From the NCBI RefSeq assembly GCF_001677475.2, contig NZ_CP015229.1: a stretch of DNA of 64,000 nt, one strand, 5' to 3'. Below are positions 2,908 to 62,855 of this stretch, piece after piece. Position numbers and translations under genes: made by a program. The DNA comes from Escherichia coli. Lineage in GTDB: Bacteria > Pseudomonadota > Gammaproteobacteria > Enterobacterales > Enterobacteriaceae. The notes below the pieces were generated by a model. That model was not told where the DNA came from, ran no database searches, and worked only from the letters and a program-made list of their open reading frames with translations. How positions within the stretch are numbered: position 1 is the first letter of the stretch; every line of letters starts with the position of its first letter.

Positions 2908-2918
2908 AAGGAATAGTA

Positions 2919-45689: not shown

Positions 45690-46716
45690 TGGCAAAAGTG
45701 GCTGACGGGATCCGCTACGCCGAACGTGTTGTTGCAGGAGAAATTGTTGCTGGCGAATTTGTCCGCCTGGCCTGCCAGCGTTTTCTTGATGATCTGAAGT
45801 ACGGCGAAGAGCGGGGGATTTATTTCAGTGAACCCCGTGCGCAGCACATCCTGAATTTCTACAAATTTGTGCCTCATGTAAAAGGGGCGCTGGCAGGCCA
45901 GCCCATTGAGTTGATGGACTGGCATGTATTTATTCTCATTAATATTTTTGGTTTTGTCATTCCGCTGGTCAATGAAGAGACCGGGGAAGTTGTCATGCGC
46001 AGCGATGGCAGTGGACGTCCGGTGATGGTGCGCCGGTTCCGGACGGCGTACAACGAAGTCGCTCGTAAAAACGCAAAATCAACTCTGTCATCGGGTATCG
46101 GCCTGTATATGACGGGGGCAGATGGTGAAGGCGGAGCTGAGGTGTATTCAGCCGCAACCACGCGTGACCAGGCCAGAATCGTGTTTGAAGACGCCAAAAA
46201 TATGGTCAGAAAAGCCCGGTCGACACTCGGGCGGTTGTTTGATTTCAACAAGCTGGCGATTTACCAGGAGCAGAGCGCATCAAAATTTGAACCGCTTTCT
46301 TCGGATGCAAACAACCTAGACGGTCTGAACATCCACTGCGCCATTATTGATGAGCTGCATGCACATAAAACCCGCGACGTGTGGGACGTTCTGGAAACGG
46401 CAACCGGTGCCCGTCTGCAGTCCCTGTTATTTGGTATCACCACGGCGGGCTTTAACAAGGAAGGGATTTGTTACGAGCAACGCGATTACGCCATCAAGGT
46501 ATTGCGAGGCTATAACAGCGACGTGGAGGGCGCGGTAAAAGACGACTCCTACTTTGCGATTATTTACACGCTCGATGAGGGAGATGATCCGTTTGATGAA
46601 ACGGTCTGGCAGAAAGCGAATCCGGGCCTGGGCATCTGTAAACGCTGGGATGATCTGCGTCGTCTGGCGAAAAAAGCGAAGGAGCAGGTCTCGGCGCGGG
46701 TGAATTTTTTCACGAA
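45689..46716 (+). pseudogene. Prophage terminase large subunit, N-terminal ~343 codons, interrupted by satellite insertion
   Basis: Aligns with satellite TerL N-terminus (PHVKGA..G.PIEL..W); frame runs into unrelated satellite DNA and stops at 46882. Confidence 0.8.
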
Positions 46717-46845
46717 GAAAGTAACATCACGCCGTAACAACAGTGCAGTCTGTCCTGATTTTTTTAGTAACCAAATGAAAGAAAAAGATTTTTTCTTGTT
46801 CGTCGTTTTTGTTTTTTCTGGATGGTTCTGGCTGTTTTCATCATT

Positions 46846-46867
46846 TGTGTATTGCACTGTGTATTGC
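46846..46867. repeat. Tandem GTGTATTGC repeats near satellite left end
   Basis: tgtgtattgcactgtgtattgc; near-identical copy at 62023-62043. Confidence 0.6.
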
Positions 46868-46887
46868 AAAAACGGGTTATAAATCAC

Positions 46888-48111
46888 ATGGCGCTAAACA
46901 AACTGAGCGATAAAAAACTTCGTTCCCTGCTTGGACGCAGGAGTGAGAGACAGGAAACCATCGCTGATGGTAACGGGCTTTCGGTACGGGTCAGTAAATA
47001 CGGATGTGTTAGTTTTGTTTTCTTTTACAGACTGGCGGGAAGGGGAACCGCGCCCATCTGGCTGACACTTGGAAAATATCCTGATCTGAGTCTCAAATCA
47101 GCGAGAGAGATGCGCGATCAGTGTCGAACCTGGCTTGCGGAGGGCAGAGATCCACGGATTCAGATAAAAATTGAACGGGAAGCCACCTTGCAACCTGTTA
47201 CCGTTCGTGAGGCACTTGAATACTGGCTTGATAATTATGCAATGGATAAGCGTAGGGGAGCAGAACATATCAGGCAGTGCTTTGGTAAACATATTTATCC
47301 GGTGATTGGTCATGTACCACTTAGTGATTGCTCTATATCTATGTGGATTAAGTGTTTTGACAAAATAAAAAAAGTAGCACCTGTACAGGCCGGAGCTTTG
47401 TTGCGTATATCAAAACAGGCGCTTAAATTTTGTAGGGTAAGAAAATACGCGATTAGTCATGAAATTGATGATCTTGAGGTCTGTGATGTGGGAAAAAAGT
47501 CTGCGCGAAGAAGCAGGGTTTTAACAGATGATGAAATCAGAGATTTATGGCGAAGTATTAATACTGATTATGACAATCACGAATTATCATATGAAAACCG
47601 AATTATTTTACGTTTCCTGGTAGTTTTTGGTTGCCGACTGTCAGAAGTATTACTGTCGTCCTGGGGAGAGTGGGATTTTGATAAGAAATTATGGCGCGTT
47701 CCCGCTGAACATAGCAAAAATGGCAGGGAAATAATCAGACCGATTCCTGATGGCATGTTTAACTGGTTAGTTACGTTAAAAAAAATAACAGGTAACAAAG
47801 AAAATGTGATTGGGTTTGATATGCGTCAGTGTACGGCAAGCGTAACTATCGGTAAGACATGGAAAAGGATGAAACACTCGGAGAAATGGACGGCGCATGA
47901 TATGCGAAGAGTGTTTGCCACAAAACTAAGTGATCATGGTTTTGAACATAATGTGGTTGAACAGTTGCTTGGGCACACATTAGGCGGTGTTGCCGGGGTT
48001 TATAACAGAAGCCAGTATATGGACAGAAAAAAAGAAGCTATGAACTGGTGGTACGACTATCTGAATAAGCAAATTAGTGGTGACGGTAATGATTCAAATA
48101 GTTACGCGTGA
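46888..48111 (+). CDS. int: P4-type tyrosine integrase
   Basis: 407 aa from MALNKLSDKKLRSLLGRR..GLSVRVSKYG (typical P4-family N-terminus); HDMRRVFAT...LGH...Y. Confidence 0.85.
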   Translation: MALNKLSDKKLRSLLGRRSERQETIADGNGLSVRVSKYGCVSFVFFYRLAGRGTAPIWLTLGKYPDLSLKSAREMRDQCRTWLAEGRDPRIQIKIEREATLQPVTVREALEYWLDNYAMDKRRGAEHIRQCFGKHIYPVIGHVPLSDCSISMWIKCFDKIKKVAPVQAGALLRISKQALKFCRVRKYAISHEIDDLEVCDVGKKSARRSRVLTDDEIRDLWRSINTDYDNHELSYENRIILRFLVVFGCRLSEVLLSSWGEWDFDKKLWRVPAEHSKNGREIIRPIPDGMFNWLVTLKKITGNKENVIGFDMRQCTASVTIGKTWKRMKHSEKWTAHDMRRVFATKLSDHGFEHNVVEQLLGHTLGGVAGVYNRSQYMDRKKEAMNWWYDYLNKQISGDGNDSNSYA

Positions 48112-48142
48112 AGAACTTGAAAATGATAAAACAATCGACAGG

Positions 48143-48310
48143 ATGATTAAGGAAGATGAATGTGCATGGTTAACCGCTCTTGGCAGGAGACACAGATCGT
48201 TACTTGAAAAGGAAGGAAAATTTCCACGAAAAATATGTATTGGTCCACAAACAAAAGTCTGGCGCTTATCTGAGGTGCTGGAATGGGTAAAAGGTGAATG
48301 GAAACCCTGA
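48143..48310 (+). CDS. AlpA-family DNA-binding protein, copy 1
   Basis: ORF 48077-48310; start at the internal Met (MIKEDECAWLTALG...); LSEVLEWV. Confidence 0.6.
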   Translation: MIKEDECAWLTALGRRHRSLLEKEGKFPRKICIGPQTKVWRLSEVLEWVKGEWKP

Positions 48311-48333
48311 GCTAAATTAAATGAGATATAATC

Positions 48334-48357
48334 AACCCGTCTTTTGGCGGGTTTTTT
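48334..48357 (+). terminator. Intrinsic terminator
   Basis: aacccgtcttttggcgggttttttt. Confidence 0.6.
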
Positions 48358-48373
48358 TATAGGTGATATTTTT

Positions 48374-48652
48374 ATGCAAAAATTTATTTATCCTACACCC
48401 GAAGAACGCATTCAGATTCTGAAAGATCATGGCGAACCGTATGATCGCCGTATACGCGAACATGAGTGTGCCAATCGTACCGGGCTTTCAAGAAGCAGAC
48501 GTTGGGTACTTGAACAGGAGGGAGCATTTCCTGCTCGTGCTCATTTAGGGAAAGTGTCTGTTTCCTGGTTGCTCTCTGATGTGCTCTGGTGGGTTATGCA
48601 TCCGCCAGGAGTAAAGGAAGTAAACAGCCCATACAAAAACGCCAATAAGTAA
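48374..48652 (+). CDS. AlpA-family DNA-binding protein, copy 2
   Basis: From MQKFIYPTPEER; ECANRTGLSRSRRWVLEQEGAFPA. Confidence 0.6.
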   Translation: MQKFIYPTPEERIQILKDHGEPYDRRIREHECANRTGLSRSRRWVLEQEGAFPARAHLGKVSVSWLLSDVLWWVMHPPGVKEVNSPYKNANK

Positions 48653-48660
48653 TTACCGAC

Positions 48661-48690
48661 AACCCCGCACCACGCAATGCGGGGTTTTTT
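48661..48690 (+). terminator. Intrinsic terminator
   Basis: aaccccgcaccacgcaatgcggggtttttt. Confidence 0.65.
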
Positions 48691-48706
48691 GTATGTGAGG
48701 TAGAAA

Positions 48707-49303
48707 GTGATGAATAAAAATATTGCCGTGACGGGCAAGGGTGACGCACGTCATGTGAAAAAATTCTGTGATATTCGTGATCTGGTCGTTCTGCGCTTTG
48801 ATAGTGTGAACGTTCGCGTGGTGTATCTGAACGGCGATCCGTGGTTTGTTGGCGCTGATGTGTGTGCGGCGCTGGAAATTAGCAACGTTACCGATGCTGT
48901 TTCAGTTCTGGATAACGATGAGGTAATGACCCTAGCTTTAACCGAGGGTCATTCAGGTAAGCGTGGTGGTGCCAGAAGTTGGAATGTTGTATCAGAATCA
49001 GGTTTTTACAAGTTGATCGCCAGAAGTCGCAAAGCTGTTAATCCTGGCACGTTCGCCCATCGTTTCAGTAATTGGGTATTCAGAAATGTGATACCGGGTA
49101 TCAGAAAAACGGGGGCTTATGGTATCCCGTGGGGCGCATTACAGGATTTTTCCCGCCGCAAAGAGCAATATCAGGTAAGTGCCAGCGAGAAGGGGAGGGA
49201 GCTACAGGCATGTAAGCGCAAAAAGCGTGAGCTAGAGGAAGAAGAAAAAAGGCTGATACGTGAATATCAGCCTGAGTTTTACTTTGGTGAGCGTATTCAG
49301 TAA
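48707..49303 (+). CDS. Bro-N domain protein (antirepressor-like)
   Basis: 198 aa; N-terminal ...VYLNGDPWFVGADVCAALEISNVTDAVSVLDNDE. Confidence 0.6.
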   Translation: MMNKNIAVTGKGDARHVKKFCDIRDLVVLRFDSVNVRVVYLNGDPWFVGADVCAALEISNVTDAVSVLDNDEVMTLALTEGHSGKRGGARSWNVVSESGFYKLIARSRKAVNPGTFAHRFSNWVFRNVIPGIRKTGAYGIPWGALQDFSRRKEQYQVSASEKGRELQACKRKKRELEEEEKRLIREYQPEFYFGERIQ

Positions 49304-49915
49304 CCACACGCGGTGCTGATTATACGGTACATCGTGTTAACCGAGAAGCTACCCACCAGCAAGGCAAAATCTTCTGCTAAAAAATGACATATGGCCAGTC
49401 GTCTGGAAAGCATGAAATTTTACAAAAATGGAAAATGAAGATTTTTATTGTGCTGGTGGGTAAAAACAAAAAGCGCCCCGTTGCCGGAGCGCCCTTGCGA
49501 ACAATTAACCTACTGCGCAAAAAAATGAATCTGTGCAGGGGGATTATATCAACCGTGTGACGAAGCGCCACAATTGCCGGATAACAGGCAAAGAAAAGGC
49601 CACCCGCTACGGTGGCCCTTCGACACAAGCTACACGTTATCCCCAACGCATGAGCGTCGCCAACAATGCCACATTTGCGGCTGGTGGGCAATGTGATCAG
49701 TGTGCTGGCTTGCTGGTGGGCTATTCCTGCTCTTTGGCCTTGCGTTGCTTTAGTGCTGCACGAGCTAATCAATCATTGTATATGAGGCGTGGAATCTTTT
49801 TTTCATCACTCCTGCATACACGCTCATTACTGACGTGTTCATTGCTGATGCAATTTCCCAGGAGGAAAGCAAATAAAAACAAAGAGCCAAGCCAGTATAG
49901 TACTTGCTGCATAAG

Positions 49916-50101
49916 TTATTCCTTATCTGATTCTTTGGTTTTTTTCCGTTGGCGGCGTTTGATCTCGCCACGCATGGCTGCGCTTATAAACTGCCCTGTA
50001 CTTTCGCCATCTTCTTTCACGTTTTCCATGCCTTCAATAATTTCATGGGCAATACGTGCAGTTACAGATTGTGATTTTGCATTCTTTGGACCTGTTGCCA
50101 T
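49916..50101 (-). CDS. Small putative ribbon-helix-helix regulator
   Basis: 61 aa from MATGPKNAKSQSVTARIAHEIIEG; GAGGGG RBS; divergent from rightward operon. Confidence 0.4.
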   Translation of the reverse strand: MATGPKNAKSQSVTARIAHEIIEGMENVKEDGESTGQFISAAMRGEIKRRQRKKTKESDKE

Positions 50102-50122
50102 GTCTAACCCCTCATGTTTTTG

Positions 50123-50204
50123 GTGTAAGACAATATACACGAAAAAAAACTATTTTAAAGGGTTGACGTGTAAGACACTGTTGTTTTATGTTGTGTCTTA
50201 CACC
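50123..50204. promoter_or_regulatory. Candidate operator array: three GTGTAAGACA(C) sites
   Basis: Sites at 50123-50132, 50168-50178 and inverted 50194-50204 (11-bp palindrome, 15-bp spacer) overlapping a TTGACG -35-like hexamer. Confidence 0.5.
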
Positions 50205-50300
50205 TTGAGTGTTCAAGGTTCAGAAACTGCGAAGCCCGTAGGTGCCGCTAACACCCACAGGCTTCTAACCACCAACGATAGTAATAGTATCGAGGCAGCT

Positions 50301-50504
50301 ATGAGAAATCATACCACACACCCGCAAGGGCGGGACTCGCACAACCTGAATAAATACATCTGGCGTTTTATCGCCCTGAGCACGGCACAACCGCGCGTAA
50401 TTCACATCGTGGCCACCAGCGAACAGGAAGCGCGTCAGCAATCTCCTGATGGCTGCGTGATGGTATTCGCCGCCCGTATTCGTCAGGGGTCACATCATGC
50501 GTAA
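50301..50504 (+). CDS. Small Icd-like/Ash-family-like protein, copy 1 (tentative)
   Basis: C-terminal WRF...ATSEQEARQQ...VFAARIRQG motif shared with the next ORF. Confidence 0.35.
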   Translation: MRNHTTHPQGRDSHNLNKYIWRFIALSTAQPRVIHIVATSEQEARQQSPDGCVMVFAARIRQGSHHA

Positions 50505-50790
50505 AAACCGCTTGCAAAAAATTATCACGGGACTGTATGCTTCCCGCGTCACCCACATGGTGACCGGGTTTGACAGCCTGAATACTACAGCGGACAGCCG
50601 CTTACATTCCGATATGCGGTTTTTTTGTGTCCGTAAACCTACCCATACCCGCATTATGGCGGGGCGTAACGGGGGAGCCTTTGCGCTCGCTGGTTCCTGT
50701 AGTGCCAGTCTGTCAACCCTGTTACGTCTCGCCACCATGTTTGACAGCGTAGTAGCGAGACTCCTTAATTTCACTACAGGAGCCTTTCAC

Positions 50791-50964
50791 ATGGCTGTAT
50801 CCACACGCCCTTATTTTGTCTGGCGCTTCATGCAGTGCCATGAAAAACAAACCTCACTCTTTACCGTCACGGCTGCCACTGAGCGCGAAGCACGCGCGCA
50901 GCTGCCGCACGCACATCTGATTTTTGTCGCCCGTATCCGTCAGGGGGTAAACCATGTTCAGTAA
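50791..50964 (+). CDS. Small Icd-like/Ash-family-like protein, copy 2 (tentative; may extend upstream to 50497)
   Basis: C-terminal VWRF...AATEREARAQ...IFVARIRQG. Confidence 0.35.
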   Translation: MAVSTRPYFVWRFMQCHEKQTSLFTVTAATEREARAQLPHAHLIFVARIRQGVNHVQ

Positions 50965-51175
50965 CAACACACCGGACGCAGCCGCAAAAGCGTTAACCAC
51001 GCTGATGCACGCGCTGATTGATATTGAATGCACGGCAGAGCTTGCGCAGAACAAAGGGAAGGAAGATTACACCGCGTTCTGCCTGGAATGTATCCGCTAT
51101 ATTTCTTCCCGCTCTCTGGATGAGGCTAAAAATATTCTTATTGCTGATTGTGAAAATGGGGGGGGTTATGCGTGA
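50954..51175 (+). CDS. Hypothetical protein
   Basis: 73-aa ORF. Confidence 0.3.
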   Translation: MFSNNTPDAAAKALTTLMHALIDIECTAELAQNKGKEDYTAFCLECIRYISSRSLDEAKNILIADCENGGGYA

Positions 51176-51391
51176 TGATCGTTTTAATTCCCTGAAACAG
51201 GAATTTTCCGGCGTGCCTGATGATGCGGCTGATGCGCTTTCGTCAATATCTGAAATAATGAGGGCGGCTTTTTTTCTTTCTTTGCACTGATGAGCACAGG
51301 GATACAGGGTTAAATATTCTTGATATCGCCGCTAACTATGCTGACTTCGTAACGGAAGCAGCGTCAAGAAAAACAACGGGTGGGGATTAAT

Positions 51392-51625
51392 ATGCGTGAT
51401 ATTTACATTGAAACAATAGACCGCGTATTTCTTGCACTTTCTCACAGTGAAAACATGCTGGAAATATTACGCATATGGCTTGAAACGCTTGGAGATAATG
51501 AACGTGATAAACAGAAATCCAGAATTGCCACGGCATTAATAACGCTTCTTGAGCCTGTAATAAATGAGTTACAGGAAATAGAGACATTACACGACAGATA
51601 TAAAGAACAGCACACCGGAGAATAA
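51392..51625 (+). CDS. Hypothetical protein
   Basis: ORF 51380-51625, start at MRDIYIETID. Confidence 0.35.
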   Translation: MRDIYIETIDRVFLALSHSENMLEILRIWLETLGDNERDKQKSRIATALITLLEPVINELQEIETLHDRYKEQHTGE

Positions 51626-51630
51626 AAATA

Positions 51631-51930
51631 ATGAAACTTAAATATTCTGGCTTAACTGCCAGCGGCCCCGCTCGGCCTGAAATCCGTAACGGCGATATTT
51701 ACCGCGACCAGTACGGTGGCACGGTAATGATTAAGGGCGTGGCGGGACGGTGCGTTACCTACCGCCGTGAAGGTTACGAATATGACTGCGTGATGCCTGT
51801 TTATCAGTTCCGGCGTGATTTTTCTCTGGTACAGGCAGCGCAACGCGGTAAGCCCACCAGCAACGCCAGGGCACGTGCAAACATCCAGAAACTGAAAACC
51901 ATGATTAACGGATTCAGGGGTAAAAAATGA
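51631..51930 (+). CDS. Hypothetical protein
   Basis: 99-aa ORF upstream of the rep gene. Confidence 0.35.
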   Translation: MKLKYSGLTASGPARPEIRNGDIYRDQYGGTVMIKGVAGRCVTYRREGYEYDCVMPVYQFRRDFSLVQAAQRGKPTSNARARANIQKLKTMINGFRGKK

Positions 51931-53336
51931 AACTGGCACCGAACGTAAAACTATTACCGAAAGATAAGCACACAGAAGCGATTATTTTCGCGGGTGTTGA
52001 TGCTCACTCATTTGCAGAGCACTACATCATTGCACAGGCCAAAAAGGCGGGAGACCCGACGCCTCCCGTTTACCTGGGCCGTTATCAGTTAAGCGAACTG
52101 GATAACTTGCAGATTGTTGATGAGGGGCGGTACAGGGCGACAGTGATACGCGCCGGAAATATTGACGAAGCGCAGCTGCTAACCATCGCGACGAAACTGG
52201 CGATCGCCGGAGTCCAGGAAGCGCGGCTGCTTTCTGAAAATTTCGAATTGCTGGAGAAATGGACCGACCAGCTACCACGGTTGCGGGAGACATGGGAGAG
52301 AGGGGAAAGCCTGGTAATGGCAAAAAACCCCCAACGAAACACCACGCTACCGATGAGCGTTGGATCTGCCGGATACGACACGCAGCTGGATTACGTGGTT
52401 AAGGGCATTATTCCGGCGTCGTCGCTGTGCAGCATATACGGGGCGAGCGGTTCCTATAAATCATTCCTTGCGGGTTCGTGGGCGTGTCACGTTTCCACGG
52501 GCCGCCAGTGGGGAGGCCGCAGGGTTGCGCATGGTGCCGTTCTCTATGTGGTTGGTGAAGGCGGTATTGGTGTACCACGTCGTGTAAAAGCCTGGGAGGT
52601 TGTGCACGATGTACAGGTGAAAAATCTGTACCTGGTAAACCGCCCCGTCTTTCCGGCGGTCCCGCTTGATGTTGATGAAATGGTTATCGCTGCCCGTCAG
52701 GTGGAGCGGGAAACGGGTAAACCTGTACGCATGATTATTCTGGATACGCTGGCGCGTTGCTTTGGCGGCAATGATGAAAATGATTCCCGTGATATGGGGG
52801 CGTTTATCCGTGGGTGTGACGAACTGAAACGACGCACAGGGGCTACGGTGCTGGTGGTTCACCATTCCGGCAAGGATGAGACGAAAGGCGCGCGAGGTTC
52901 CAGTGCATTCCGTGCGTCACTGGATGCCGAATACCGGATACGCAGAGAGGACGCAGGAAGCGAGGCGCTGGTAATCTCATGTACCAAAATGAAGGACGCG
53001 GAGGAACTTAAAGAAGCCGCCTACGATTTGCGGGTGGTGGAGCTATTTACCGACGCTGACGGCGAATTAATTACGTCGCTGGTGGTGGTGGATAAGCCGC
53101 GTCCTCCCGTTGAACTGGAGCGCATCGAGGAGGCAGGCAACAAGACGGAAAACCATACCGCGTTATGGGGGTGCATCCGGTCGCGCACACAGAACGGTGA
53201 TAAGTGCACTATTGCGCTGTTACGTGACGATATGAAAAAGCTGGGGTATGAGATGAAGCACTTCAGCCGCTGGTTACGCAAGCTGGAAAAAGACGGGGTT
53301 ATTTATATCGACGGTGATGACGTAGGCACGCTGTAA
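51927..53336 (+). CDS. Replication protein: RepA-like RecA-fold helicase/ATPase with C-terminal DNA-binding region
   Basis: 469 aa; Walker A GASGSYKS, Walker B MIILD, HHSGKDETKGARGSSA; iterons immediately downstream. Confidence 0.7.
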   Translation: MKLAPNVKLLPKDKHTEAIIFAGVDAHSFAEHYIIAQAKKAGDPTPPVYLGRYQLSELDNLQIVDEGRYRATVIRAGNIDEAQLLTIATKLAIAGVQEARLLSENFELLEKWTDQLPRLRETWERGESLVMAKNPQRNTTLPMSVGSAGYDTQLDYVVKGIIPASSLCSIYGASGSYKSFLAGSWACHVSTGRQWGGRRVAHGAVLYVVGEGGIGVPRRVKAWEVVHDVQVKNLYLVNRPVFPAVPLDVDEMVIAARQVERETGKPVRMIILDTLARCFGGNDENDSRDMGAFIRGCDELKRRTGATVLVVHHSGKDETKGARGSSAFRASLDAEYRIRREDAGSEALVISCTKMKDAEELKEAAYDLRVVELFTDADGELITSLVVVDKPRPPVELERIEEAGNKTENHTALWGCIRSRTQNGDKCTIALLRDDMKKLGYEMKHFSRWLRKLEKDGVIYIDGDDVGTL

Positions 53337-53530
53337 AAAGTGGGGTGCAAAAGTGGGGAGAGTGAGCAAAACGCCCGAAAAACGCCATTATTCCCCACTT
53401 TTCAACGTATATATACCCAAAAAAGTGGGGAGTAAAAAAATCTTTATGAAACAGCACGATAAAAATCAAAAACTCCCCACCTGTAACGAGGTGGGGAAGT
53501 GTAAAAAGTGGGGCGCAAAAGTGGGGAGTG
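53336..53530. repeat. Iteron array, candidate satellite replication origin
   Basis: Eight or more copies of AAAGTGGGG / CCCCACTTT in both orientations within ~195 bp. Confidence 0.7.
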
Positions 53531-53786
53531 ATGGGGAAATGACCAGAATACGCAGAGACAGAACAGAGCCGAAATATAAAGCGTTAGACATGACAGAGCT
53601 TTCCTTAACGGTGGCAATCAAAGCGATAGACCGCCACACGCGGGAAGGATACGCGAAGGAACATCCCGAACTGATAAGCGCATTCATGGCCGCAGCGGCT
53701 GCAAACTTTGCCACGCTGACAGAACGGGAGACAGCCGAGGCAGAACAGGTAACAACCATCAACGTTAAAACCGGAGGGGTGGAATC

Positions 53787-54212
53787 ATGACGGCACAGAT
53801 AGCAGCTTACGGGCGGCTGGTGGAGGACCCGCAGGTAAAACAGACCAGCAAGGGAACACCCATGACGCTGGCGAGTATGGCGGTTCCCCTGCCATGCAGC
53901 CAGGCAGATGACGGAACGGCGACGATGTGGTTATCCGTCCTGGCGTTTGGCAGACAGGCCGACGCACTGGCAAAACACCGCAAAGGCGAACTGGTGAGCG
54001 TGGCGGGTAACATGCAGGTAAGCCAGTGGACAGGGCAGAACGGCGAAACGCGGCAGGGCTGGCAGGTTATTGCAGACAGCGTAATCAGTGCGCGAACGGC
54101 GCGACCGGGCGGCAAAAAAGGCCAACAGGGGCAGGCCACTGACGCACTGAACAGGGCAAAACAACAGACAGGCCAGCACGATGATCCGTACGGGGACGGG
54201 ATACCGTTTTAA
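53787..54212 (+). CDS. ssb: Single-stranded DNA-binding protein
   Basis: 141 aa; OB-fold-like N-terminus, Gly/Gln-rich linker, acidic tail ending DDPYGDGIPF. Confidence 0.7.
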   Translation: MTAQIAAYGRLVEDPQVKQTSKGTPMTLASMAVPLPCSQADDGTATMWLSVLAFGRQADALAKHRKGELVSVAGNMQVSQWTGQNGETRQGWQVIADSVISARTARPGGKKGQQGQATDALNRAKQQTGQHDDPYGDGIPF

Positions 54213-54227
54213 GCAGTGAGGTACAGC

Positions 54228-54509
54228 ATGATTAAAGACAGCAAAGCGGAAGAACTGGAGGCTAAAGGGCTGTACCGGAGAGCGGCGGCACGTTGGGCTG
54301 ATGTTATGTGGCTGGTGAGCACTGACAAGGAGCGCGAACAAGTGGCAAAGCGTCGCGCGGAATGTATCCGTAAGGCAGCACGCCCACCAGTCATACCGGA
54401 TAATTTCGGAATACTGAAAGAGGCCATAAACCGCACACATACCGGGATGGGCTTACAGAAGCCTGGCGGTGAGATGTTCAGGAACTACCCGAAAAAAGGG
54501 GATAATTGA
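54228..54509 (+). CDS. Hypothetical small basic protein (possibly PerC-like regulator; tentative)
   Basis: ORF 54216-54509; KGLYRRAAARWADVMW motif. Confidence 0.3.
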   Translation: MIKDSKAEELEAKGLYRRAAARWADVMWLVSTDKEREQVAKRRAECIRKAARPPVIPDNFGILKEAINRTHTGMGLQKPGGEMFRNYPKKGDN

Positions 54510-54554
54510 TAACGGTTGTTAACTGTTTCTGGTATCGTGGTAGCAGGAGGAAAC

Positions 54555-54803
54555 ATGCCAGTGACATTTGAAGAAGTCCAGCAACATAAAAAGCTTCATG
54601 GTTTTGATGATCTGGAAACCACGACAGCAAAAAAATATCGCCGGCTGCTTTCTTCCGATGCGTTATTTTTTGTGGATCATCATGATTTTCTGCGTAGCTC
54701 ACTGACCGGGGAAATTTTCGCAACCAACCGTGAGCAGGTGGAAGCGATGATCGAATATCTGTGGAAAATAAGGCGCAGAATGCGTGATCCCGTGAAACGG
54801 TAG
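54555..54803 (+). CDS. Hypothetical protein
   Basis: ORF 54516-54803, start at MPVTFEEVQQ. Confidence 0.35.
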   Translation: MPVTFEEVQQHKKLHGFDDLETTTAKKYRRLLSSDALFFVDHHDFLRSSLTGEIFATNREQVEAMIEYLWKIRRRMRDPVKR

Positions 54804-54811
54804 AATAATAA

Positions 54812-54842
54812 TGGCCTGGTATTTTCCAGGCCATTTTTTTTT
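54812..54842 (+). terminator. Intrinsic terminator
   Basis: ggcctggtattttccaggcc followed by T-run. Confidence 0.7.
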
Positions 54843-55314
54843 AGAAGTCGATCTCTGTATCGCGATTAAATTCATCGCTAAGGTAAAGTGCTTCGCTTGG
54901 GCATTTTCCGTTTTCCAGTAATGTTTCCCAGAAATCTTTATCGAAACACCCCTCAAGATACAGATAGCGGCAGATGTGAAGTAAATCACTTCGTGTCCAT
55001 CCGTGCATGCTGCTACTTGTTACACCATATTCACTTTCTAGTTTATAGAATGTGAGCGCCTCCCGGTCGTGCCAGGCTTTGCACAGACGATCGTATATCT
55101 TTTTAGCTTTGTTTTTAGATGTGCCGAAAAACTCTTCGTAAATTTCATGTGGGCGAGTAGGAATACTTCCGTCGCCATCCTGCAAGAAAGGATAAACATC
55201 TGCCTCCCAGGCATACACGTAAGAATCGCTGAACTCATCATAGTGTTTACCAAGGTGGAGAATCTGCAATCGTTGCTGAATGAACATTGCTTTTTTCAGT
55301 TCATTTTCTGACAT
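54841..55314 (-). CDS. Hypothetical 157-aa protein on the opposite strand (candidate accessory/cargo gene)
   Basis: Only minus-strand gene within the replication-packaging span; no family recognised. Confidence 0.5.
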   Translation of the reverse strand: MSENELKKAMFIQQRLQILHLGKHYDEFSDSYVYAWEADVYPFLQDGDGSIPTRPHEIYEEFFGTSKNKAKKIYDRLCKAWHDREALTFYKLESEYGVTSSSMHGWTRSDLLHICRYLYLEGCFDKDFWETLLENGKCPSEALYLSDEFNRDTEIDF

Positions 55315-55608
55315 AGTTCGTTCCTCCTGATTAACGAGCAGAAAATGTACGGAACAGCTTATTTATTTTTTCAGGTTTTGTAAGTTATTTGTTCGTGGTT
55401 GTTCCAGGTTGTTCGGTGATTCTGGCTGATGTTTACATACTGATTTTTATGTATATGTTGGCGTGTGGCACTCAGACGTGAGCCGCCACAATGCCGCCTG
55501 ACCCCCTGCGCGATGCCGGGTTGATCTGCGAGATGCCGAGAGTGTCGGGCGGCGCTCCCTCCGTGTTGGTTTCACGTCCTGAATCTTAACCAATACGAGA
55601 AAACCTTC

Positions 55609-56754
55609 ATGAAGAAATTAATCGAACTCCGCCAGCAAAAAACCGCCCTGAAAAACCAGATGCGATCCCTGCTGGAAAAAGCCGACAGTGAAAACCGCAG
55701 CCTGAACGATGACGAAGGCAAACAGTTTGATGAACTGCGTGCAAAAGCCGATTCCCTCGACACAGAAATCTCCCGTCTTGAAGCTGTTGCGGATGAAGAA
55801 CGTAACCAGCCAGGTGTTTGCGTCGAAGAGAAAATTACCAAAGACGAACTGCGCTCTTACATTCTGACCGGGGAAACCCGCAACCTGTCCGGCAGTGTTC
55901 CGGCTGATGGTGGTTATACGGTTATCCCGGAACTGAACAGAGAAATTATGCGTCAGCTTTCTGATGAATCGGTGATGCGTAAAATCTGTACTGTTAAAAC
56001 CATTCACAGCAATGAATTTAAGCAACTGGTTTCTGCCGGGGGCGCGGTCGTTGAACACGGTGAAGAAGGCACTACACGTAACCAGACGGCAACCCCAAAA
56101 CTGAATGAAGTCAGTATCCGCCTGTATCCGATCTACGCTTACCCGAAAACCACTCAGGAAATTATCGATTTTTCCGAAGTCGATATTATGGGCTGGTTAT
56201 CTTCTGAAATTGGCGACACTTTCGTTGATACCGAAGAAACGGATCTGGTTTCTGGTGATGGCGAGAAAAAAGCTAAAGGTTTCCTGGCTTTTCCGCGCAC
56301 TGAGGATAACGACAAAACCCGTCCTTTCGGTACGCTCCAGACGAAAAAAGTTACTGGCAGTCTTAGCGCCGACATGCTGATTGACCTGAAATTTACGCTG
56401 CGCAATAAGTACCGCAAAAAAGCTGTATGGGTGATGAACTCAAATACAGCCGCCTCCGCACAAAAACTGAAAAATGCCACTGGTGATTACATCTGGCGCG
56501 ATCGTTTACAGGCTGGTGATCCTGATTCTCTGCTGGGGCTTCCGGTTGAATATCTGGAATTTATGCCGGACGGTGTGATTGCAGTAGGTGACTTTAAGCG
56601 CGGTTATTTCATCGTTGACCATGAAACCGGTACGCGTACCCGTCCGGATTTCAGCGAACCTGGATTCATTAACATCTATACCCAGAAATATCTGGGCGGT
56701 GGTGTGGTGGATTCGAACGCCATCAAGATTCTGGAAATTCAGGCTGGCAAGTAA
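55609..56754 (+). CDS. Major capsid protein (HK97 fold)
   Basis: 381 aa; N-terminal coiled-coil delta region; hairpin after stop. Confidence 0.8.
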   Translation: MKKLIELRQQKTALKNQMRSLLEKADSENRSLNDDEGKQFDELRAKADSLDTEISRLEAVADEERNQPGVCVEEKITKDELRSYILTGETRNLSGSVPADGGYTVIPELNREIMRQLSDESVMRKICTVKTIHSNEFKQLVSAGGAVVEHGEEGTTRNQTATPKLNEVSIRLYPIYAYPKTTQEIIDFSEVDIMGWLSSEIGDTFVDTEETDLVSGDGEKKAKGFLAFPRTEDNDKTRPFGTLQTKKVTGSLSADMLIDLKFTLRNKYRKKAVWVMNSNTAASAQKLKNATGDYIWRDRLQAGDPDSLLGLPVEYLEFMPDGVIAVGDFKRGYFIVDHETGTRTRPDFSEPGFINIYTQKYLGGGVVDSNAIKILEIQAGK

Positions 56755-56803
56755 TGAGCAAAGGGGGCTTCGGCCTCCTTTTTCAGCTTTATGGAGTACA
56801 CCG

Positions 56804-57364
56804 ATGAAAAACACCGATTTTGAAATCCGTACATCTGAACTGACCGCCAGCGATAAAAAACTGGTGGGTTATGCCGTTCGCTGGAACAGCCTTTCAGAAA
56901 TTATTTGGGACGAATTCCGCGAACAGTTCACGCCGGGGGCTTTTGCTGACTATCTGGCGGCGGGTAATGATGTGCGCTGCCTGTATGAGCATGACTATAC
57001 CCGACTGCTGGGGCGCACCAAATCCGGAACACTGGTACTGACTGAGGACAACACCGGGCTACGTTTTGAACTGACACCGCCTGATACCCAGCTTGGAAAA
57101 GATGTGCTTACGCTGGTGGAGCGTGGCGACATTACAGGAATGAGCTTTGGCTTTCGCGCATTATGCGAAGAGTGGAATATCGCGCAAAAACCGTATCTGC
57201 GCACTGTTACCGCCGCAGAACTCCGTGAAATCACGATAACGTCGATGCCTGCTTATCCCGAATCTGGCGTGGAGATTGCCCACCGTTCGTTGTTTGCACA
57301 GCACCCTGAATTACGCCCGGCAGGAAATAATCGTCATCGCTGGGCTGAACTGGCGGGGTTGTGA
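56804..57364 (+). CDS. Prohead maturation protease (HK97 family)
   Basis: 186 aa from MKNTDFEIRTSELTASDKKLVGYAVRWNS. Confidence 0.75.
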   Translation: MKNTDFEIRTSELTASDKKLVGYAVRWNSLSEIIWDEFREQFTPGAFADYLAAGNDVRCLYEHDYTRLLGRTKSGTLVLTEDNTGLRFELTPPDTQLGKDVLTLVERGDITGMSFGFRALCEEWNIAQKPYLRTVTAAELREITITSMPAYPESGVEIAHRSLFAQHPELRPAGNNRHRWAELAGL

Positions 57365-57365
57365 T

Positions 57366-58580
57366 ATGTGGTGGCCTTTTAGTCGTAAAAAAAGCGATCT
57401 GCGTAACCTGTCCATTGATGATTTTCTGGCGCTGTCCGGCGTACCGAATACCGGATCCGGAGAATATGTTTCTGCCGGGACGGCTGAATCATTGCCTGCT
57501 GTGATGAACGCGGTTTCTGTCATCGCTGAGGCGGTGGCCACGATGCCGTGTTATCTGTATCTGGTACGCAATGATAAGGGCAGGGAGGCGCGGGAGTGGC
57601 TGGACAGTCATCCGGTCGATATTCTGCTGAATGAGCAGCCTAATTCGTGCCAGACACCTTACCAGTTTAAACGCACAATGATGCGTCACTGCCTGCTGAA
57701 CGGTAACGCCTATGCGGTTATTGAGTGGGGGCGGGACGGTCAGCCAAAATCACTTCATCCTTATGCGCCGGGGTGTGTTGTACCGGAACGCACTGGCGCG
57801 CACAAATACCGCTATACCATCACCGAACCCTATACAGGAACGGTGCGCACGTATTTACAGGAAGAAGTCCTGCATCTCCGCTATGCCTCGGATGATGGCT
57901 TTCTGGGACGTTCCCCCGTCACGATTTGCCGTGAGGCGCTGGGGCTTGGCCTTGCTCAACAGCGTCACGGAGCCAGCATTATGAAAGATGGCATGATGGC
58001 GGCAGGGATTATCACGTCAGGCGAATGGCTGGACGGTGTGAAAGGTAAACAGGCATTAGACGCCCTGGAACGCTACAAGGGGGCGAAAAATGCCGGAAAA
58101 ACGCCAATCCTTGAAGGGGGCATGGATTACAAGCAACTGGGGATGAGTAACCAGGATGCGGAATGGCTGGCCTCCCGTCGCTTCTCCATTGAAGACATCG
58201 CCCGGATGTTCAACGTGTCGCCGATTTTTCTTCAGGAATACAGCAACAGCACCTACAGCAATTTCAGTGAGGCAAGCCGCGCGTTTCTGACCATGACAAT
58301 GCGCCCATGGCTGGCGAACTTCGAACAGCAAATTAAGGCCGCTTTGCTGGTGGCTTCTCCCGTACCTGGTACCCGTTATCTGGTTGAGTTTGATTCAGCC
58401 GATTTACTGCGCGCTACTCCAACCGAGCGTTACGCCACGTATGAGAAAGGGATTAAGAACGGGATCATGAATCCGAACGAAGCCCGCGAACGTGAGGGGA
58501 TGCCGCCGCGTGAAGGTGGCGACGAATTCAGCCAGGCATGGAAGCAGACGGTGGAAATTAAAGGTGAAAAAGATGAGTGA
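57366..58580 (+). CDS. Portal protein (HK97 family)
   Basis: 404 aa from MWWPFSRKK; homologous to the prophage portal at 63049. Confidence 0.8.
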   Translation: MWWPFSRKKSDLRNLSIDDFLALSGVPNTGSGEYVSAGTAESLPAVMNAVSVIAEAVATMPCYLYLVRNDKGREAREWLDSHPVDILLNEQPNSCQTPYQFKRTMMRHCLLNGNAYAVIEWGRDGQPKSLHPYAPGCVVPERTGAHKYRYTITEPYTGTVRTYLQEEVLHLRYASDDGFLGRSPVTICREALGLGLAQQRHGASIMKDGMMAAGIITSGEWLDGVKGKQALDALERYKGAKNAGKTPILEGGMDYKQLGMSNQDAEWLASRRFSIEDIARMFNVSPIFLQEYSNSTYSNFSEASRAFLTMTMRPWLANFEQQIKAALLVASPVPGTRYLVEFDSADLLRATPTERYATYEKGIKNGIMNPNEAREREGMPPREGGDEFSQAWKQTVEIKGEKDE

Positions 58581-58872
58581 AGAAAAAATTACACCTGATG
58601 AAGTCAGGGCACATCTTCGCCTTGATGACTTTTCCGGAGAGGGCGAACTTCTGAAAATGTATACCGATGCGGCGCTGGAAGCCTGCCAGAAGCATATCGG
58701 GAAACGTTTTGAAGACGGCCTGGAATTTACCCCGGCAATACGTGTTGGTTGCCTGATGTACATTGCTTTCCTGTACGAGAACAGGGAAGCGGTTTCACCT
58801 GTGGAGCAGTCTGAACTGCCTATGGCTATTTCTGCGCTCTGGTCGGTTTATCGTGATGTGGGGGTGTACTGA
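58573..58872 (+). CDS. Head-tail connector/adaptor (gp6-like)
   Basis: 99 aa from MSEEKITPDEVRAHLRLDDFSGEGELL. Confidence 0.6.
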   Translation: MSEEKITPDEVRAHLRLDDFSGEGELLKMYTDAALEACQKHIGKRFEDGLEFTPAIRVGCLMYIAFLYENREAVSPVEQSELPMAISALWSVYRDVGVY

Positions 58873-59312
58873 TGCCGTGGCAACCATTAAGGCGATGCAC
58901 TGAGCCGGGCTGTAATAAGCGCGTGAAGTCCGGCAAGTGTGAAGAGCACAGGCGGGCTGCATGGCGTGCAGAGGATGCCAGACGGGGACACCGCCGCGCG
59001 CGCGGGTATTCCCGACAGTGGGACAAATACCGCGCCCTGTACCTGAGCAAAAACCCGTTATGCGTGCGTTGTCTGGCTAAGGGGATTTATACGCCAGCTC
59101 TTGTGGTGGATCACATCATTCCCATCAATGGCGGCGGTGATGTTCTCTTCTGGCCTGAGTGGAACCACCAGGCATTGTGCCAGACGTGCCACAACCGTAA
59201 GACGACACGGGAAGACCCAGCCACGAAAGCGAACCGTAAGGCGGGCATGTATCGCGAGCAGGAAGAACGGGCGGCACACCGTAACGACTGGATGTATGGC
59301 GATGATGACTGA
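58872..59312 (+). CDS. HNH endonuclease (terminase-associated)
   Basis: 146 aa; CVRCL...VDHIIPINGGG...CQTCHNRKT. Confidence 0.75.
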   Translation: MPWQPLRRCTEPGCNKRVKSGKCEEHRRAAWRAEDARRGHRRARGYSRQWDKYRALYLSKNPLCVRCLAKGIYTPALVVDHIIPINGGGDVLFWPEWNHQALCQTCHNRKTTREDPATKANRKAGMYREQEERAAHRNDWMYGDDD

Positions 59313-59481
59313 ACATGAGCAAAACAGGCTGATACGTGGACTGATAAGGCAACGTGACTTATGGAAGACACAGGAGACAGGGCACAAAGCCAACAGGACA
59401 GGGCGCACAGAACGCACCACAGCGAAGCGATTAACCGACCGTGACCGCGAGGTCATGGAATGTTTTCGCAATCGCTGGTGA
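59302..59481 (+). CDS. Hypothetical small basic protein
   Basis: ~59 aa Arg-rich ORF between HNH and terS. Confidence 0.3.
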   Translation: MMTEHEQNRLIRGLIRQRDLWKTQETGHKANRTGRTERTTAKRLTDRDREVMECFRNRW

Positions 59482-59600
59482 GGCTGTCAGAGGGGGTGGG
59501 GGAGGTTTTCAGGACGAAACCGTCCCTGCCGGACACCGACCGCCTCCTCAAATTTTTGTGCACGGTAATTTTTTTGAAAATAATTGGGCGAAAAAAGAAC

Positions 59601-59957
59601 ATGGCAAGACCACCAAAAGCCCCCGCTTACCTGGATGAAATCGCGGTCAGGCAGTGGAAGGAAAAATCGCGCCAGCTTTCCGTGCGGGAAGACCTTACCC
59701 CCGCCGACTGGAGCAATCTGGAACTGTATTGTGTTAACTACTCCATATACCGCAAAGCCGTCGAAGACCTTGCGACGCGCGGGTTCAGCATTGTTAACAG
59801 TCAGGGCAGCGAGAGCAGAAACCCCGCCCTGAGCGCAAAGGCTGACGCGGAAAGAATAATGATCAAAATGGCTTCTTTGCTGGGTTTTGACCCGGTAAGC
59901 CGCCGCAGAAATCCACCGGAAACAGAGGAAGAGGACGAGCTTGACCGCCTGGCATGA
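59601..59957 (+). CDS. Terminase small subunit (P27-family-like)
   Basis: From MARPPKAPAYLDEIAV; same M-x-x-PPK-xP start as prophage TerS. Confidence 0.7.
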   Translation: MARPPKAPAYLDEIAVRQWKEKSRQLSVREDLTPADWSNLELYCVNYSIYRKAVEDLATRGFSIVNSQGSESRNPALSAKADAERIMIKMASLLGFDPVSRRRNPPETEEEDELDRLA

Positions 59958-61602
59958 GTACGCAGAAGGCGTAAAAAACGGCAAAATTACGGCCTGTAAA
60001 CGACTGAAACAGGCCGTTAAACGGTATTTTTCTGACCTTGAAAACCCCCTTTACACGTTCGAGCCGGAGGTCGTGGAGCGGTTTATTGCCTTTTCCAGGG
60101 TGTGTCCGCACGTAAAAGGCGCAATGCGCGGTAGCCCCATTGAGCTGGAGCCGTGGCAGCAGTTCGCCTTTGCGTGCATCCTGGGCTTTAAGGTTAAGGC
60201 CACCGGACGGCGCAAATACACCAGCGCATTCATTGAAGTACCGCGTAAAAATGCCAAATCCACGGTCGCCGCTATCCTGGCTAACTGGTTTCTGGTTATG
60301 GAAAACGGGCAGCAGGATATTTACACCGCCGCCGTGAGTCGTGATCAGGCGCGGATCGTGTTTGATGATGCGCGTCAGATGTGCCTTTTATCCCGACCGT
60401 TACGAAAGCGGGTAAATATTCAGGCACACAAGGTGATACACCCGAAAACCAACAGCCTGTTAAAGCCACTGGCAGCAAAAGCGGCAACCATTGAAGGTAC
60501 AAACCCGAGTCTTGCTATTGTGGATGAATATCACCTGCACCCTGACAACGGGGTTTATTCCGCGCTTGAACTGGGAATGGGGGCGCGTCCGGAGGGGTTA
60601 TTATTTGCCATCACCACATCGGGGAGCAACGTTGTTTCAGCCTGTAAACAACACTACGACTATTGCTGCCAGATACTGGATGGTGAAGAGGTGAACGAAT
60701 CCATGTTCGTGCTGATTTACGAGCTGGATGATGAAAGCGAGGTTGACGATCCGGCGATGTGGATAAAGGCGAATCCCAATATCGATGTTTCCGTCGATCG
60801 TGAAAAACTGGCCTCAACCATCCAGAAAGCGCGGGGTATTCCGTCGCAGTGGGTGGAGATGCTCACCAAGCGATTCAATATCTGGTGTCAGGGGGCTACG
60901 CCGTGGATGGGTAACGGTGCATGGGCGGAGTGCGCCGGAACGTTCGCGGAGGCGGATTTATACGGGCAGGAGTGCTACGCGGGGCTGGACTTATCATCAA
61001 CCAGCGATATTTCCAGCGTGTGCTATGCCTTTCCGGTCGGTAAAAAGATTATGCTGGTTTCCCGTCACTATCTGCCGGAATTTCAGCTACAGAACCCCGC
61101 CAATAAAAACCGCGCCATCTATCGCCAGTGGGTAAAGGCGGGCTGGATACGCACAACACCGGGTGACTGCATTGATTATGACCGTATCCGTGATGACATC
61201 ATGGCGGATGCAGAGAATTTCAATATCAGGCTGGTGGGCTTCGATACATGGAACGCCACGCACCTGAGGACGCAGCTACAGGGCGCAGGATTTGAGGTGG
61301 AGCCGTTCCCGCAAACATACCTTCGTTTCAGTCCGGCGGCGAAATCGTTCGAAGTTTTTGTTAACCGGAAGGTGATTGTGCATCGTGGTGATCCGGTGCT
61401 GGCCTGGTCAATGAGTAATGTTGTGATGCAGAGTGACGCGAACGCCAATATCAAGCCGAACAAGAAAAAATCATCCAACAAGATAGACCCGAGCGTTGCG
61501 GCGCTGATGGCGTTTGGCACATTCCAGGCAGAGCATGAGGAATTTGCATTCGATATGAGCGACAGCCACAAAGAGCGGCTTGCGGCGTTTGATGGTGTGT
61601 AA
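59941..61602 (+). CDS. Terminase large subunit (intact, satellite-encoded)
   Basis: 553 aa; collinear homolog of the two prophage terL fragments. Confidence 0.85.
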   Translation: MTAWHEYAEGVKNGKITACKRLKQAVKRYFSDLENPLYTFEPEVVERFIAFSRVCPHVKGAMRGSPIELEPWQQFAFACILGFKVKATGRRKYTSAFIEVPRKNAKSTVAAILANWFLVMENGQQDIYTAAVSRDQARIVFDDARQMCLLSRPLRKRVNIQAHKVIHPKTNSLLKPLAAKAATIEGTNPSLAIVDEYHLHPDNGVYSALELGMGARPEGLLFAITTSGSNVVSACKQHYDYCCQILDGEEVNESMFVLIYELDDESEVDDPAMWIKANPNIDVSVDREKLASTIQKARGIPSQWVEMLTKRFNIWCQGATPWMGNGAWAECAGTFAEADLYGQECYAGLDLSSTSDISSVCYAFPVGKKIMLVSRHYLPEFQLQNPANKNRAIYRQWVKAGWIRTTPGDCIDYDRIRDDIMADAENFNIRLVGFDTWNATHLRTQLQGAGFEVEPFPQTYLRFSPAAKSFEVFVNRKVIVHRGDPVLAWSMSNVVMQSDANANIKPNKKKSSNKIDPSVAALMAFGTFQAEHEEFAFDMSDSHKERLAAFDGV

Positions 61603-62118: not shown

Positions 62119-62855
62119 TCACGAAACACATGAATGTGTGGGTCACTGCCGAATCGGCCTGGATGGACATGATTAAGTGGGAGAAGTGCGAATACATCGC
62201 TCCACAGCATGAGCTGAAAACGTATCCCATGTGGGTCGGCGTCGACCTTGCACATAAGATTGATATCTGTGCGGCGGCAAAACTCTGGCGAACGGATAAC
62301 GGGCATGTTCATGCCGATTTTAAATTCTGGCTTCCGGAAGGGCGACTGGAACGGTGTTCACGGCAGCAGGCAGAACTTTACCGGAAGTGGGCGGAGATGG
62401 ATAAGCTCATCCTGACGGATGGTGATGTTATCGATCATGCTCAGATAAAAAGTGACTTACTGGAATGGATTGGTGGTGAAAACCTCAGGGAACTGGGATT
62501 TGACCCGTGGAGCGCGATGCAGTTCAGCCTGGCACTGGCTGAAGAAGGGATACCGCTGGTGGAGGTTCCGCAGACGGTCCGCAATCTGTCAGAGGCCATG
62601 AAGGAAACGGAATCACTGGTCTATGCCGGACGTTTCCACCACAGCAATCACCCGGTCATGAACTGGATGATGTCTAACGTTACGGTGAAACCGGACAAAA
62701 ACGACAATATCTTCCCGAATAAATCCACGCCGGAAGCCAAAATCGACGGCCCTGTTGCGATGTTTACAGCAATGAGCCGGATGCTGGTCAATGGCGGTGA
62801 ACCGGAGCCGGATCTGTCTGAACACCTGATCAGTGTTGGTATCCGCTCGCTTTAA
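62119..62855 (+). pseudogene. Prophage terminase large subunit, C-terminal ~245 codons (resumes after satellite)
   Basis: LTKHMNVWVTAESAWM aligns with satellite TerL LTKRFNIWCQGATPWM. Confidence 0.8.

Follow-up and report, generated by a model that had tools for sequence, protein, structure and literature searches.

The window analyzed here comprises 64,000 nucleotides of an Escherichia coli chromosomal contig (NZ_CP015229.1) and contains a capsid-forming PICI (cf-PICI), delineated from its open reading frames and from the RefSeq annotation of near-identical islands. From the left, the island encodes an integrase, two AlpA-type HTH genes, BRO-N, DUF4222, a RepA helicase, SSB, PerC, and a small hypothetical gene, after which comes a cargo hotspot; to the right of the hotspot lie genes for the HK97 capsid, protease, portal, connector, HNH, TerS, and TerL. 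Tail and lysis genes are absent from 46822-61602, and the element is assigned to the cf-PICIs on this absence together with its integrase, AlpA, replication genes, and capsid and packaging genes of its own. The same gene order is kept in more than 30 loci. In this island, the hotspot is occupied by a single gene, which we call ORF157.

46822-61602, plus strand: cf-PICI, the host element
54516-54803, plus strand: gene closing the replication/regulation module, to the left of the hotspot (RefSeq: hypothetical protein of 83 aa, starting at 54555)
54841-55314, minus strand: ORF157 coding sequence, 157 aa (ORF call, homologs of constant length, dN/dS)
55432-55459, plus strand: promoter-like site of the capsid operon, TTTACA-16-TATGTT (found by scan; both hexamers conserved in alignment)
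55609-56754, plus strand: HK97-type major capsid gene, which opens the packaging module to the right of the hotspot

An earlier, sequence-only reading had singled out this 157-aa frame as the sole gene on the minus strand from the replication module to the capsid module, and this description stands: the frame opens with an ATG preceded by AGGAGG, and all annotated neighbors from DUF4222 to TerL are on the plus strand. Further small minus-strand genes are located near 49.9-50.1 kb, in the regulatory region, and are annotated in relatives as YlcI/YnfO and hypothetical proteins.

The island is inserted within the large-terminase gene of a resident prophage (window positions 45689-46880 and 62130-62855), with the N-terminal part of the resident TerL to the left of the integrase and its nuclease part to the right of the island's own TerL. 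The endolysin, Rz, HNH, and TerS genes of this prophage are found at 43.7-45.7 kb, and the same split terminase is seen in the RefSeq annotation of related strains. Hence, a packaging gene of a phage resident in the same genome is split by the satellite.

The gene just 5′ of the hotspot is variable. A PerC-family regulator occupies this place in the window (54216-54509) and in some other islands, while others carry a ProQ/FinO-family protein instead. In sister islands the variable gene is found at L205:9226-9768, and in L145, L153, and L155 an ORF of 180 aa or 176 aa precedes the small hypothetical gene.

ORF157 is a gene under purifying selection

ORF157 is a real gene under purifying selection. 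Its homologs in Enterobacter, Serratia, Raoultella, Rouxiella, Edwardsiella, and others are 156-158 aa long at 49-63% identity, and Nei-Gojobori dN/dS values for the informative pairs range from 0.05 to 0.24, with a median of 0.08. RefSeq annotates the product as a hypothetical protein, and the exact protein is on record from 722 contigs. The G+C content of the gene is 42.4%, against about 52% in both flanking modules. The homolog of one cf-PICI (L035:7946-8053) is reduced to 35 codons by a premature stop, so that the gene is occasionally a pseudogene.

Expression signals could be assigned on both sides of the reading frame, whose ATG start codon is at 55314-55312 on the minus strand.

55323-55328, minus strand: Shine-Dalgarno sequence AGGAGG, 8 nt 5′ of the ATG, read from the sequence
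55356-55384, minus strand: putative sigma-70-like promoter, with -35 CTTACA (55384-55379), a 17-nt spacer, and -10 TAAGCT (55361-55356)
54810-54835, no strand assigned: G+C-rich hairpin, putative bidirectional terminator between convergent genes (terminator scan of both strands; part of the variable cassette)

In an alignment of 17 cf-PICI intergenic regions, a TTTACA + 17 nt + TAnnnT pattern is kept across genera about 60 nt 5′ of the ATG. The -35 box of ORF157 belongs to the conserved island backbone and is also kept at empty sites, while the -10 box is within the cassette. A consensus promoter scan of the window did not call this promoter, and both of its hexamers are weaker than those of the relatives. 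The conserved promoter-like sequence nevertheless makes expression of ORF157 in the lysogen plausible, and we infer that the integrated satellite would express the gene whether or not it is induced.

The hairpin has a 10-bp stem and begins 5 nt past the ORF157 stop codon, which agrees with the earlier assignment of a terminator to the gene, but it is not exclusively its own. The T-run is on the plus strand, where it serves the convergent upstream gene (54516-54803), and the minus-strand tail is weaker. Because the hairpin sequence differs from that of islands without ORF157, it travels with the cassette. No Rfam family matched in the region 53.5-56.5 kb.

The promoter-like site of the capsid operon is back to back with that of ORF157. 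Between the two divergent promoters, three GAACAA(C) repeats with a spacing of approximately 10-11 bp (55391-55420; GAACAACCTGGAACAACCACGAACAAATAA on the minus strand) may represent activator or repressor sites. Two elements stand out in the leader of the capsid operon, a 25-nt palindrome, GTGGCACTCAGACGTGAGCCGCCAC, at 55465-55489 and a downstream box, TGGTTTCACGTC, at approximately 55565-55576. Both are nearly invariant among cf-PICIs whose proteins are only 50-70% identical and neither has an Rfam match; they may form an RNA structure or a protein-binding site for the control of late expression.

ORF157 is optional cargo in a slot with unrelated occupants

Pairwise alignment with the corresponding island of E. 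coli JP538, which does not carry the gene, defines the boundaries of the insertion.

54804-55361, no strand assigned: cargo cassette of about 558 bp (hairpin, ORF157, 5′UTR, and -10 box), in place of about 33 bp in islands without the gene

The empty allele replaces this segment cleanly by its ~33 bp, which contain a different hairpin. Among complete E. coli genomes, the flanks of the slot are present in about 155 records, 147 of which lack ORF157 and 8 of which carry it; this corresponds to 8 of the 5426 complete genomes. An ORF157 homolog with 49-61% protein identity is found at the same place and in the same orientation in more than 30 cf-PICIs (IMG/VR contigs and Serratia and Edwardsiella genomes). 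There, it diverges from the capsid gene at a distance of approximately 260-295 bp, and capsid, portal, and TerL are 66-87% identical.

A survey of cf-PICIs retrieved by their capsid protein revealed that the slot is mostly empty. Some islands contain ORF157, some phrog_5789, and some phrog_5789 together with a partner of 252-258 aa. One island (L038) holds the ORF157 homolog and, between it and the capsid gene, an extra 120-aa ORF (L038:7480-7842, minus strand) with no PADLOC or PHROG match. The commonest alternative cargo is phrog_5789, a minus-strand gene for a protein of 166-170 aa, present in 51 of the 5426 complete E. coli genomes.

L152:2708-3214, L164:2722-3222, and L166:2726-3238, minus strand: phrog_5789 alone
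L165:1940-2497 + 2507-3265 and L181:1938-2447 + 2477-3253, minus strand: phrog_5789 with its partner, the two-gene form

The phrog_5789 protein combines an RHIM-like motif, SGNQVQIGEHNHMLVN (Pfam RHIM, E=0.05), with a C-terminal tail that is hydrophobic, and the partner displays a similar motif, N.FNI..V.S.Y.Q.G..NNI. The pair recalls the amyloid-signaling pairs Bab/Agp (bioRxiv 10.1101/2024.11.07.622273), although the proteins differ, and it has no PADLOC match.

ORF157 is thus an optional cargo gene, or moron, in the cf-PICI slot between the replication/regulation module and the promoter of the capsid operon. Its presence is polymorphic with sharp boundaries, and unrelated cargo takes its place elsewhere; a promoter-like sequence and a putative terminator, an orientation independent of the neighbors, and an atypical base composition complete the description. 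The proposal of the sequence-only reading that this would be an accessory gene at an inter-module position of a satellite is therefore borne out by its occurrence in 8 of ~155 E. coli islands, by the unrelated genes found in the same slot, and by its low G+C content and own promoter-like sequence and hairpin. The placement of ORF157 is accounted for by the hotspot rather than by coupling to the capsid operon.

Cargo hotspots of satellites and prophages were reportedly described by Fillol-Salom et al. in 2022. The cf-PICI slot resembles the P4/P2 hotspots in being a fixed site bounded by conserved core genes with unrelated cargos in sister elements, and in its swappable, low-G+C, often opposite-strand cargo with a promoter of its own. 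In contrast to the P4/P2 hotspots, it lies in a capsid-forming element, and no cargo here matches a known defense system. We found no description of a cargo hotspot or of defense cargo in cf-PICIs in the searchable literature, and a 2026 preprint reports that PICI and cfPICI have no homologs of the P2/P4 defense genes (bioRxiv 10.64898/2026.02.27.708500). Since the alternative cargos are likewise unannotated, the slot is not a proven defense hotspot.

ORF157 belongs to a large unannotated family

The ORF157 protein is acidic (pI 4.9), contains 16% aromatic residues, and is all-alpha in an AF2 model (pLDDT 90). It matches nothing in Pfam, PHROG, NCBIfam, PADLOC, or the PDB sequences, and a PDB search with a 73-sequence family profile yielded nothing significant. 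None of the PADLOC-DB v2 models matches ORF157 (E up to 1) or the X domain of ten relatives. Foldseek comparison of the model with AFDB50 retrieved X-family proteins only, with no structural neighbor that would suggest a mechanism, and a literature search by the ORF157 protein accessions returned nothing. Remote homology and structure prediction were proposed with the initial description of the gene; across the curated libraries, the PDB, and AFDB50, they gave no match to a structural or replication protein.

Relatives are nevertheless abundant. An exhaustive search of 1.84 billion cluster representatives identified 256 clusters at E<=1e-3, of which 123 also pass E<=1e-10; the family thus comprises at least 256 clusters at 50% identity. 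The gene had been described as an orphan with no recognizable family. This holds for the curated libraries, but there are hundreds of unannotated relatives, and in the sense of a lineage-restricted gene the term orphan is wrong. ORF157 is a stand-alone member of this large unannotated family, which we name the X domain. Named AFDB50 relatives are mostly from Proteobacteria. A profile search of genome contigs with a narrow family alignment gave nine loci, and a viral search with an alignment of RHH-X proteins recovered mostly unrelated RHH proteins. A 1213-aa match (P0057), a repeat protein that does not look bacterial, was treated as spurious.

The most conserved residues of the family are A35, W36, P42, F63, F89, E93, R108, L111, R116, Y117, L120, W129, P139, and A142. 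We recognized no catalytic, sensor, nuclease, NTase, pore, or other toxin motif in ORF157. A possible HEPN motif (R108-x4-H113) was dropped, as H113 is not conserved.

Relatives occur on mobile elements and near defense genes

Outside cf-PICIs, approximately two thirds of the distinct contexts of X relatives are on mobile elements. In Vibrio, a genomic island that carries a relative also has the conjugation genes TraG/TraH; Enterobacter has a relative on a CP4-like island, and in Aeromonas a relative is flanked by two serine recombinases. Others lie at the border of P2/P4-type integrations, in Phytobacter and in Kosakonia, or in a Mu-like prophage. In temperate phages, the relatives are located in early regions, mostly on the strand opposite to their neighbors and once with a lipoprotein gene. 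Several others are lone genes among housekeeping genes.

A recognized defense gene is found within about 2 kb in 7 of the ~19 distinct non-cf-PICI contexts, a raw count that carries no background statistic. The neighbors are CBASS; a type IV restriction enzyme with SymE; a short pAgo with its REase partner; a DRT-type reverse transcriptase; a TIR-like effector; the candidate system PDC-S32, located 43 nt upstream; and a Schlafen-type protein similar to pAgo-associated proteins. Because the family travels on mobile elements and beside anti-phage genes, ORF157 appears to be a good candidate for a phage-conflict gene.

Fusions to DNA-binding domains and comparison with antitoxins

About one in six family representatives is 190-260 aa long, with an N-terminal DNA-binding extension. 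RHH is the commonest type of fusion, alongside Phd/YefM (TIGR01552 above the cut-off), MazE/AbrB, and a winged HTH (HTH_43), and one relative has an Aca2/YdiL-like HTH N-terminus. ORF157 itself has no N-terminal DNA-binding domain of the RHH, Phd, MazE/AbrB, or HTH type. No Aca-type HTH repressor, the mark of an anti-CRISPR/Aca arrangement, is fused to ORF157 or follows it, and the cassette consists of one gene rather than the two genes of a type II TA operon.

In none of the ~19 distinct contexts does a toxin gene adjoin a fused or unfused relative, and all copies examined are solitary; in one case, a SymE-like gene follows the relative at a distance of 100 nt. The fused relatives have the N-terminal DNA-binding folds of the classical type II antitoxins (MazE, Phd/YefM, and RHH/CopG). 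In those antitoxins, however, a disordered tail wraps around the toxin, whereas the X domain is a folded unit of about 150 aa, and ORF157 has neither a DNA-binding domain nor an adjoining toxin. One public source labels the exact E. coli protein "antitoxin MazE," though it has no MazE domain; this label probably spread from MazE-X fusion proteins.

In one Tn7-like element (L008:3699-5618), a Phd/YefM-X gene and a type II CBASS operon (patatin, CD-NTase, E1/E2, and JAB) are transcribed away from each other, 289 bp apart. CBASS regulators usually sit divergent from the CBASS operon, and this fusion protein may regulate the operon that it adjoins.

Comparison with Panacea

The AFDB name of one family member, "SocA-like Panacea domain-containing," provided a lead that we followed with the validated PanA of the Burkholderia prophage phi52237 as the reference (PMC8832971); the PanA profile is narrow (29 sequences, Neff 3.7). 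None of the 147 family members scanned matches PF13274 (DUF4065) at E<=0.1. Alignment of the X and PanA profiles by hhalign gave a probability of 0.1-0.2%, hmmsearch scores were near zero, and no genuine DUF4065 protein was present among the X-family structural matches from Foldseek. Compared by secondary-structure order, predicted PanA has a beta-hairpin and orders its helices differently from ORF157. On these five lines (Pfam, hhalign, hmmsearch, Foldseek, and secondary-structure order), membership of the Panacea/PanA family was rejected, and the "AW" motif common to X and PanA is no evidence of homology.

The two families are alike in other respects: both consist of globular domains of ~150-160 aa that are frequent in phages and prophages and sometimes preceded by a DNA-binding domain (PMC8832971, PMC10440598). 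They are distinguished by the adjoining toxin of PanA, which was not found in any X context examined, although only about half of the PanA genes were detected in conserved two-gene TA-like loci (PMC8832971).

Discussion

Several features of ORF157 point in the same direction. The absence of an enzymatic motif, the acidity of the protein, and the pattern of fusions in its relatives suggest a protein-binding module. Placement as an opposite-strand moron, in satellites as in phages, favors expression in the lysogen, which in turn speaks for protection or exclusion, while a counter-defense role early in infection is less favored. Lysogenic-conversion exclusion genes are known among prophage morons, for example, P2 tin and old and lambda rexAB. 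ORF157 shares with prophage morons the form of an autonomous promoter-gene-terminator unit between operons, in opposite orientation and with atypical G+C content, although it has no sequence or fold relationship to the characterized moron products. The base rate from P4 also leans toward a protective role, given that six of eight unknown hotspot cargos chosen at random protected against phages (bioRxiv 10.64898/2026.02.27.708500).

Our preferred interpretation is that ORF157 is a lysogen-expressed moron that encodes a non-enzymatic protein-binding factor in phage/mobile-element conflict, most likely in defense, and we would rate its chance of being correct as somewhat short of even. The gene would be transcribed from its own promoter in the integrated satellite, and the small, acidic, all-alpha protein would bind a protein of a phage or mobile element, or a host factor that such an element needs. 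This binding would give the lysogen or the satellite an advantage, most likely through exclusion of, or defense against, non-helper phages. Fused relatives would use their DNA-binding domain for autoregulation and, in one case, possibly to control the adjoining CBASS operon. An anti-phage function of ORF157, as raised by the sequence-only reading, is suggested by this scheme. Several points count against it: the lack of any PADLOC match, of a recognized catalytic or sensor motif, and of a structural neighbor; the unannotated state of the alternative cargos; the relatives that stand alone among housekeeping genes; the weakness of both promoter hexamers in the window; and the cf-PICI prototype, whose influence on its helper is reported to be negligible (PMC10085698).

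The alternative that survives best, though we consider it unlikely, is that the solitary X protein resembles an orphan antitoxin and neutralizes a host TA or abortive-infection effector in trans, which would let the satellite and its helper finish their cycle. The four classical antitoxin DNA-binding folds and the single Aca2/YdiL-like HTH carried by relatives are in line with such a role, as is the small size and acidity of ORF157, traits of antitoxins and of many anti-defense proteins. The "antitoxin MazE" label on the exact protein, the one Panacea-named AFDB member, and the occurrence on mobile elements could be read in the same way. However, the label was probably transferred from MazE-X fusions, the similarity to Panacea is unsupported, and no toxin adjoins the gene in any of the ~19 contexts, those of the fused forms included. 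Moreover, a moron placed on the opposite strand would more likely be expressed in the lysogen than early after entry.

A function in host fitness or some other accessory role unconnected with phage conflict, or the decay of a passenger gene, is likewise unlikely. It would fit with the relatives found alone among housekeeping genes, with the truncated L035 copy, and with the rarity of ORF157 in complete E. coli genomes. Against it stand the strong purifying selection, a length that stays constant from genus to genus, the position kept in more than 30 islands, and the mobile setting of about two thirds of the non-cf-PICI contexts, seven contexts having a defense gene within ~2 kb.

ORF157 could also be an island-specific regulator that modulates the divergent capsid/packaging operon or the sensing of the helper, for example, as an anti-activator or co-factor. 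We regard this as improbable: the same promoters are found in the 147 of 155 E. coli islands without ORF157, so that the gene is dispensable, and its replacement by unrelated genes indicates that the position reflects the hotspot. That most islands lack ORF157 and that others have unrelated replacements thus argues against a core regulatory role, as do the wide distribution of the family outside cf-PICIs and the absence of a DNA-binding domain from ORF157.

Least probable of all, and by our estimate very improbable, is a conditionally toxic effector in which X is a toxin restrained in cis by the fused domain and the solitary copy kills the cell upon infection: single-chain toxin-antitoxin fusions such as CapRel and EzeT are known, the family is associated with defense islands, and phrog_5789, an alternative occupant of the slot, resembles a cell-death effector (RHIM-like motif and hydrophobic tail), but ORF157 is acidic and has no toxin motif, the DNA-binding domain of classical antitoxins is not their neutralizing part, and a strong ribosome-binding site and a conserved sigma-70-type promoter of its own without an antitoxin partner gene argue against an unrestrained toxin.

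Returning to the preferred reading of ORF157 as a protein-binding moron, a broader proposal concerns the family as a whole. The X domain could be a new, widespread, non-enzymatic sensor or neutralizer module of the conflict between phages and bacteria, Panacea-like in its logic though unrelated. It could act alone, as a single-gene defense that satellites, phages, and further mobile islands carry, or, when joined to antitoxin-type DNA-binding domains, as an autoregulated switch in one protein. This is possible, but we lean against it more clearly than against the narrower claim for ORF157.

cf-PICIs spread between species, and ORF157 marks a site in them at which at least three unrelated, unannotated cargos are swapped. 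The family to which it leads has at least 256 clusters and no name in any curated library. Without a phenotype in protection or neutralization, ORF157 would be an ordinary hypothetical moron. If it does protect its host, or neutralizes a host effector, it would represent a new single-protein family in the immune or counter-immune repertoire and would explain the many solitary genes in Proteobacteria that combine an antitoxin domain with X, and the region upstream of the cf-PICI capsid gene would be the place to look for more. Should the X domain prove to be a conflict module, the slot upstream of the cf-PICI capsid would constitute an unmined reservoir of immune genes, including the pair with RHIM-like amyloid motifs.
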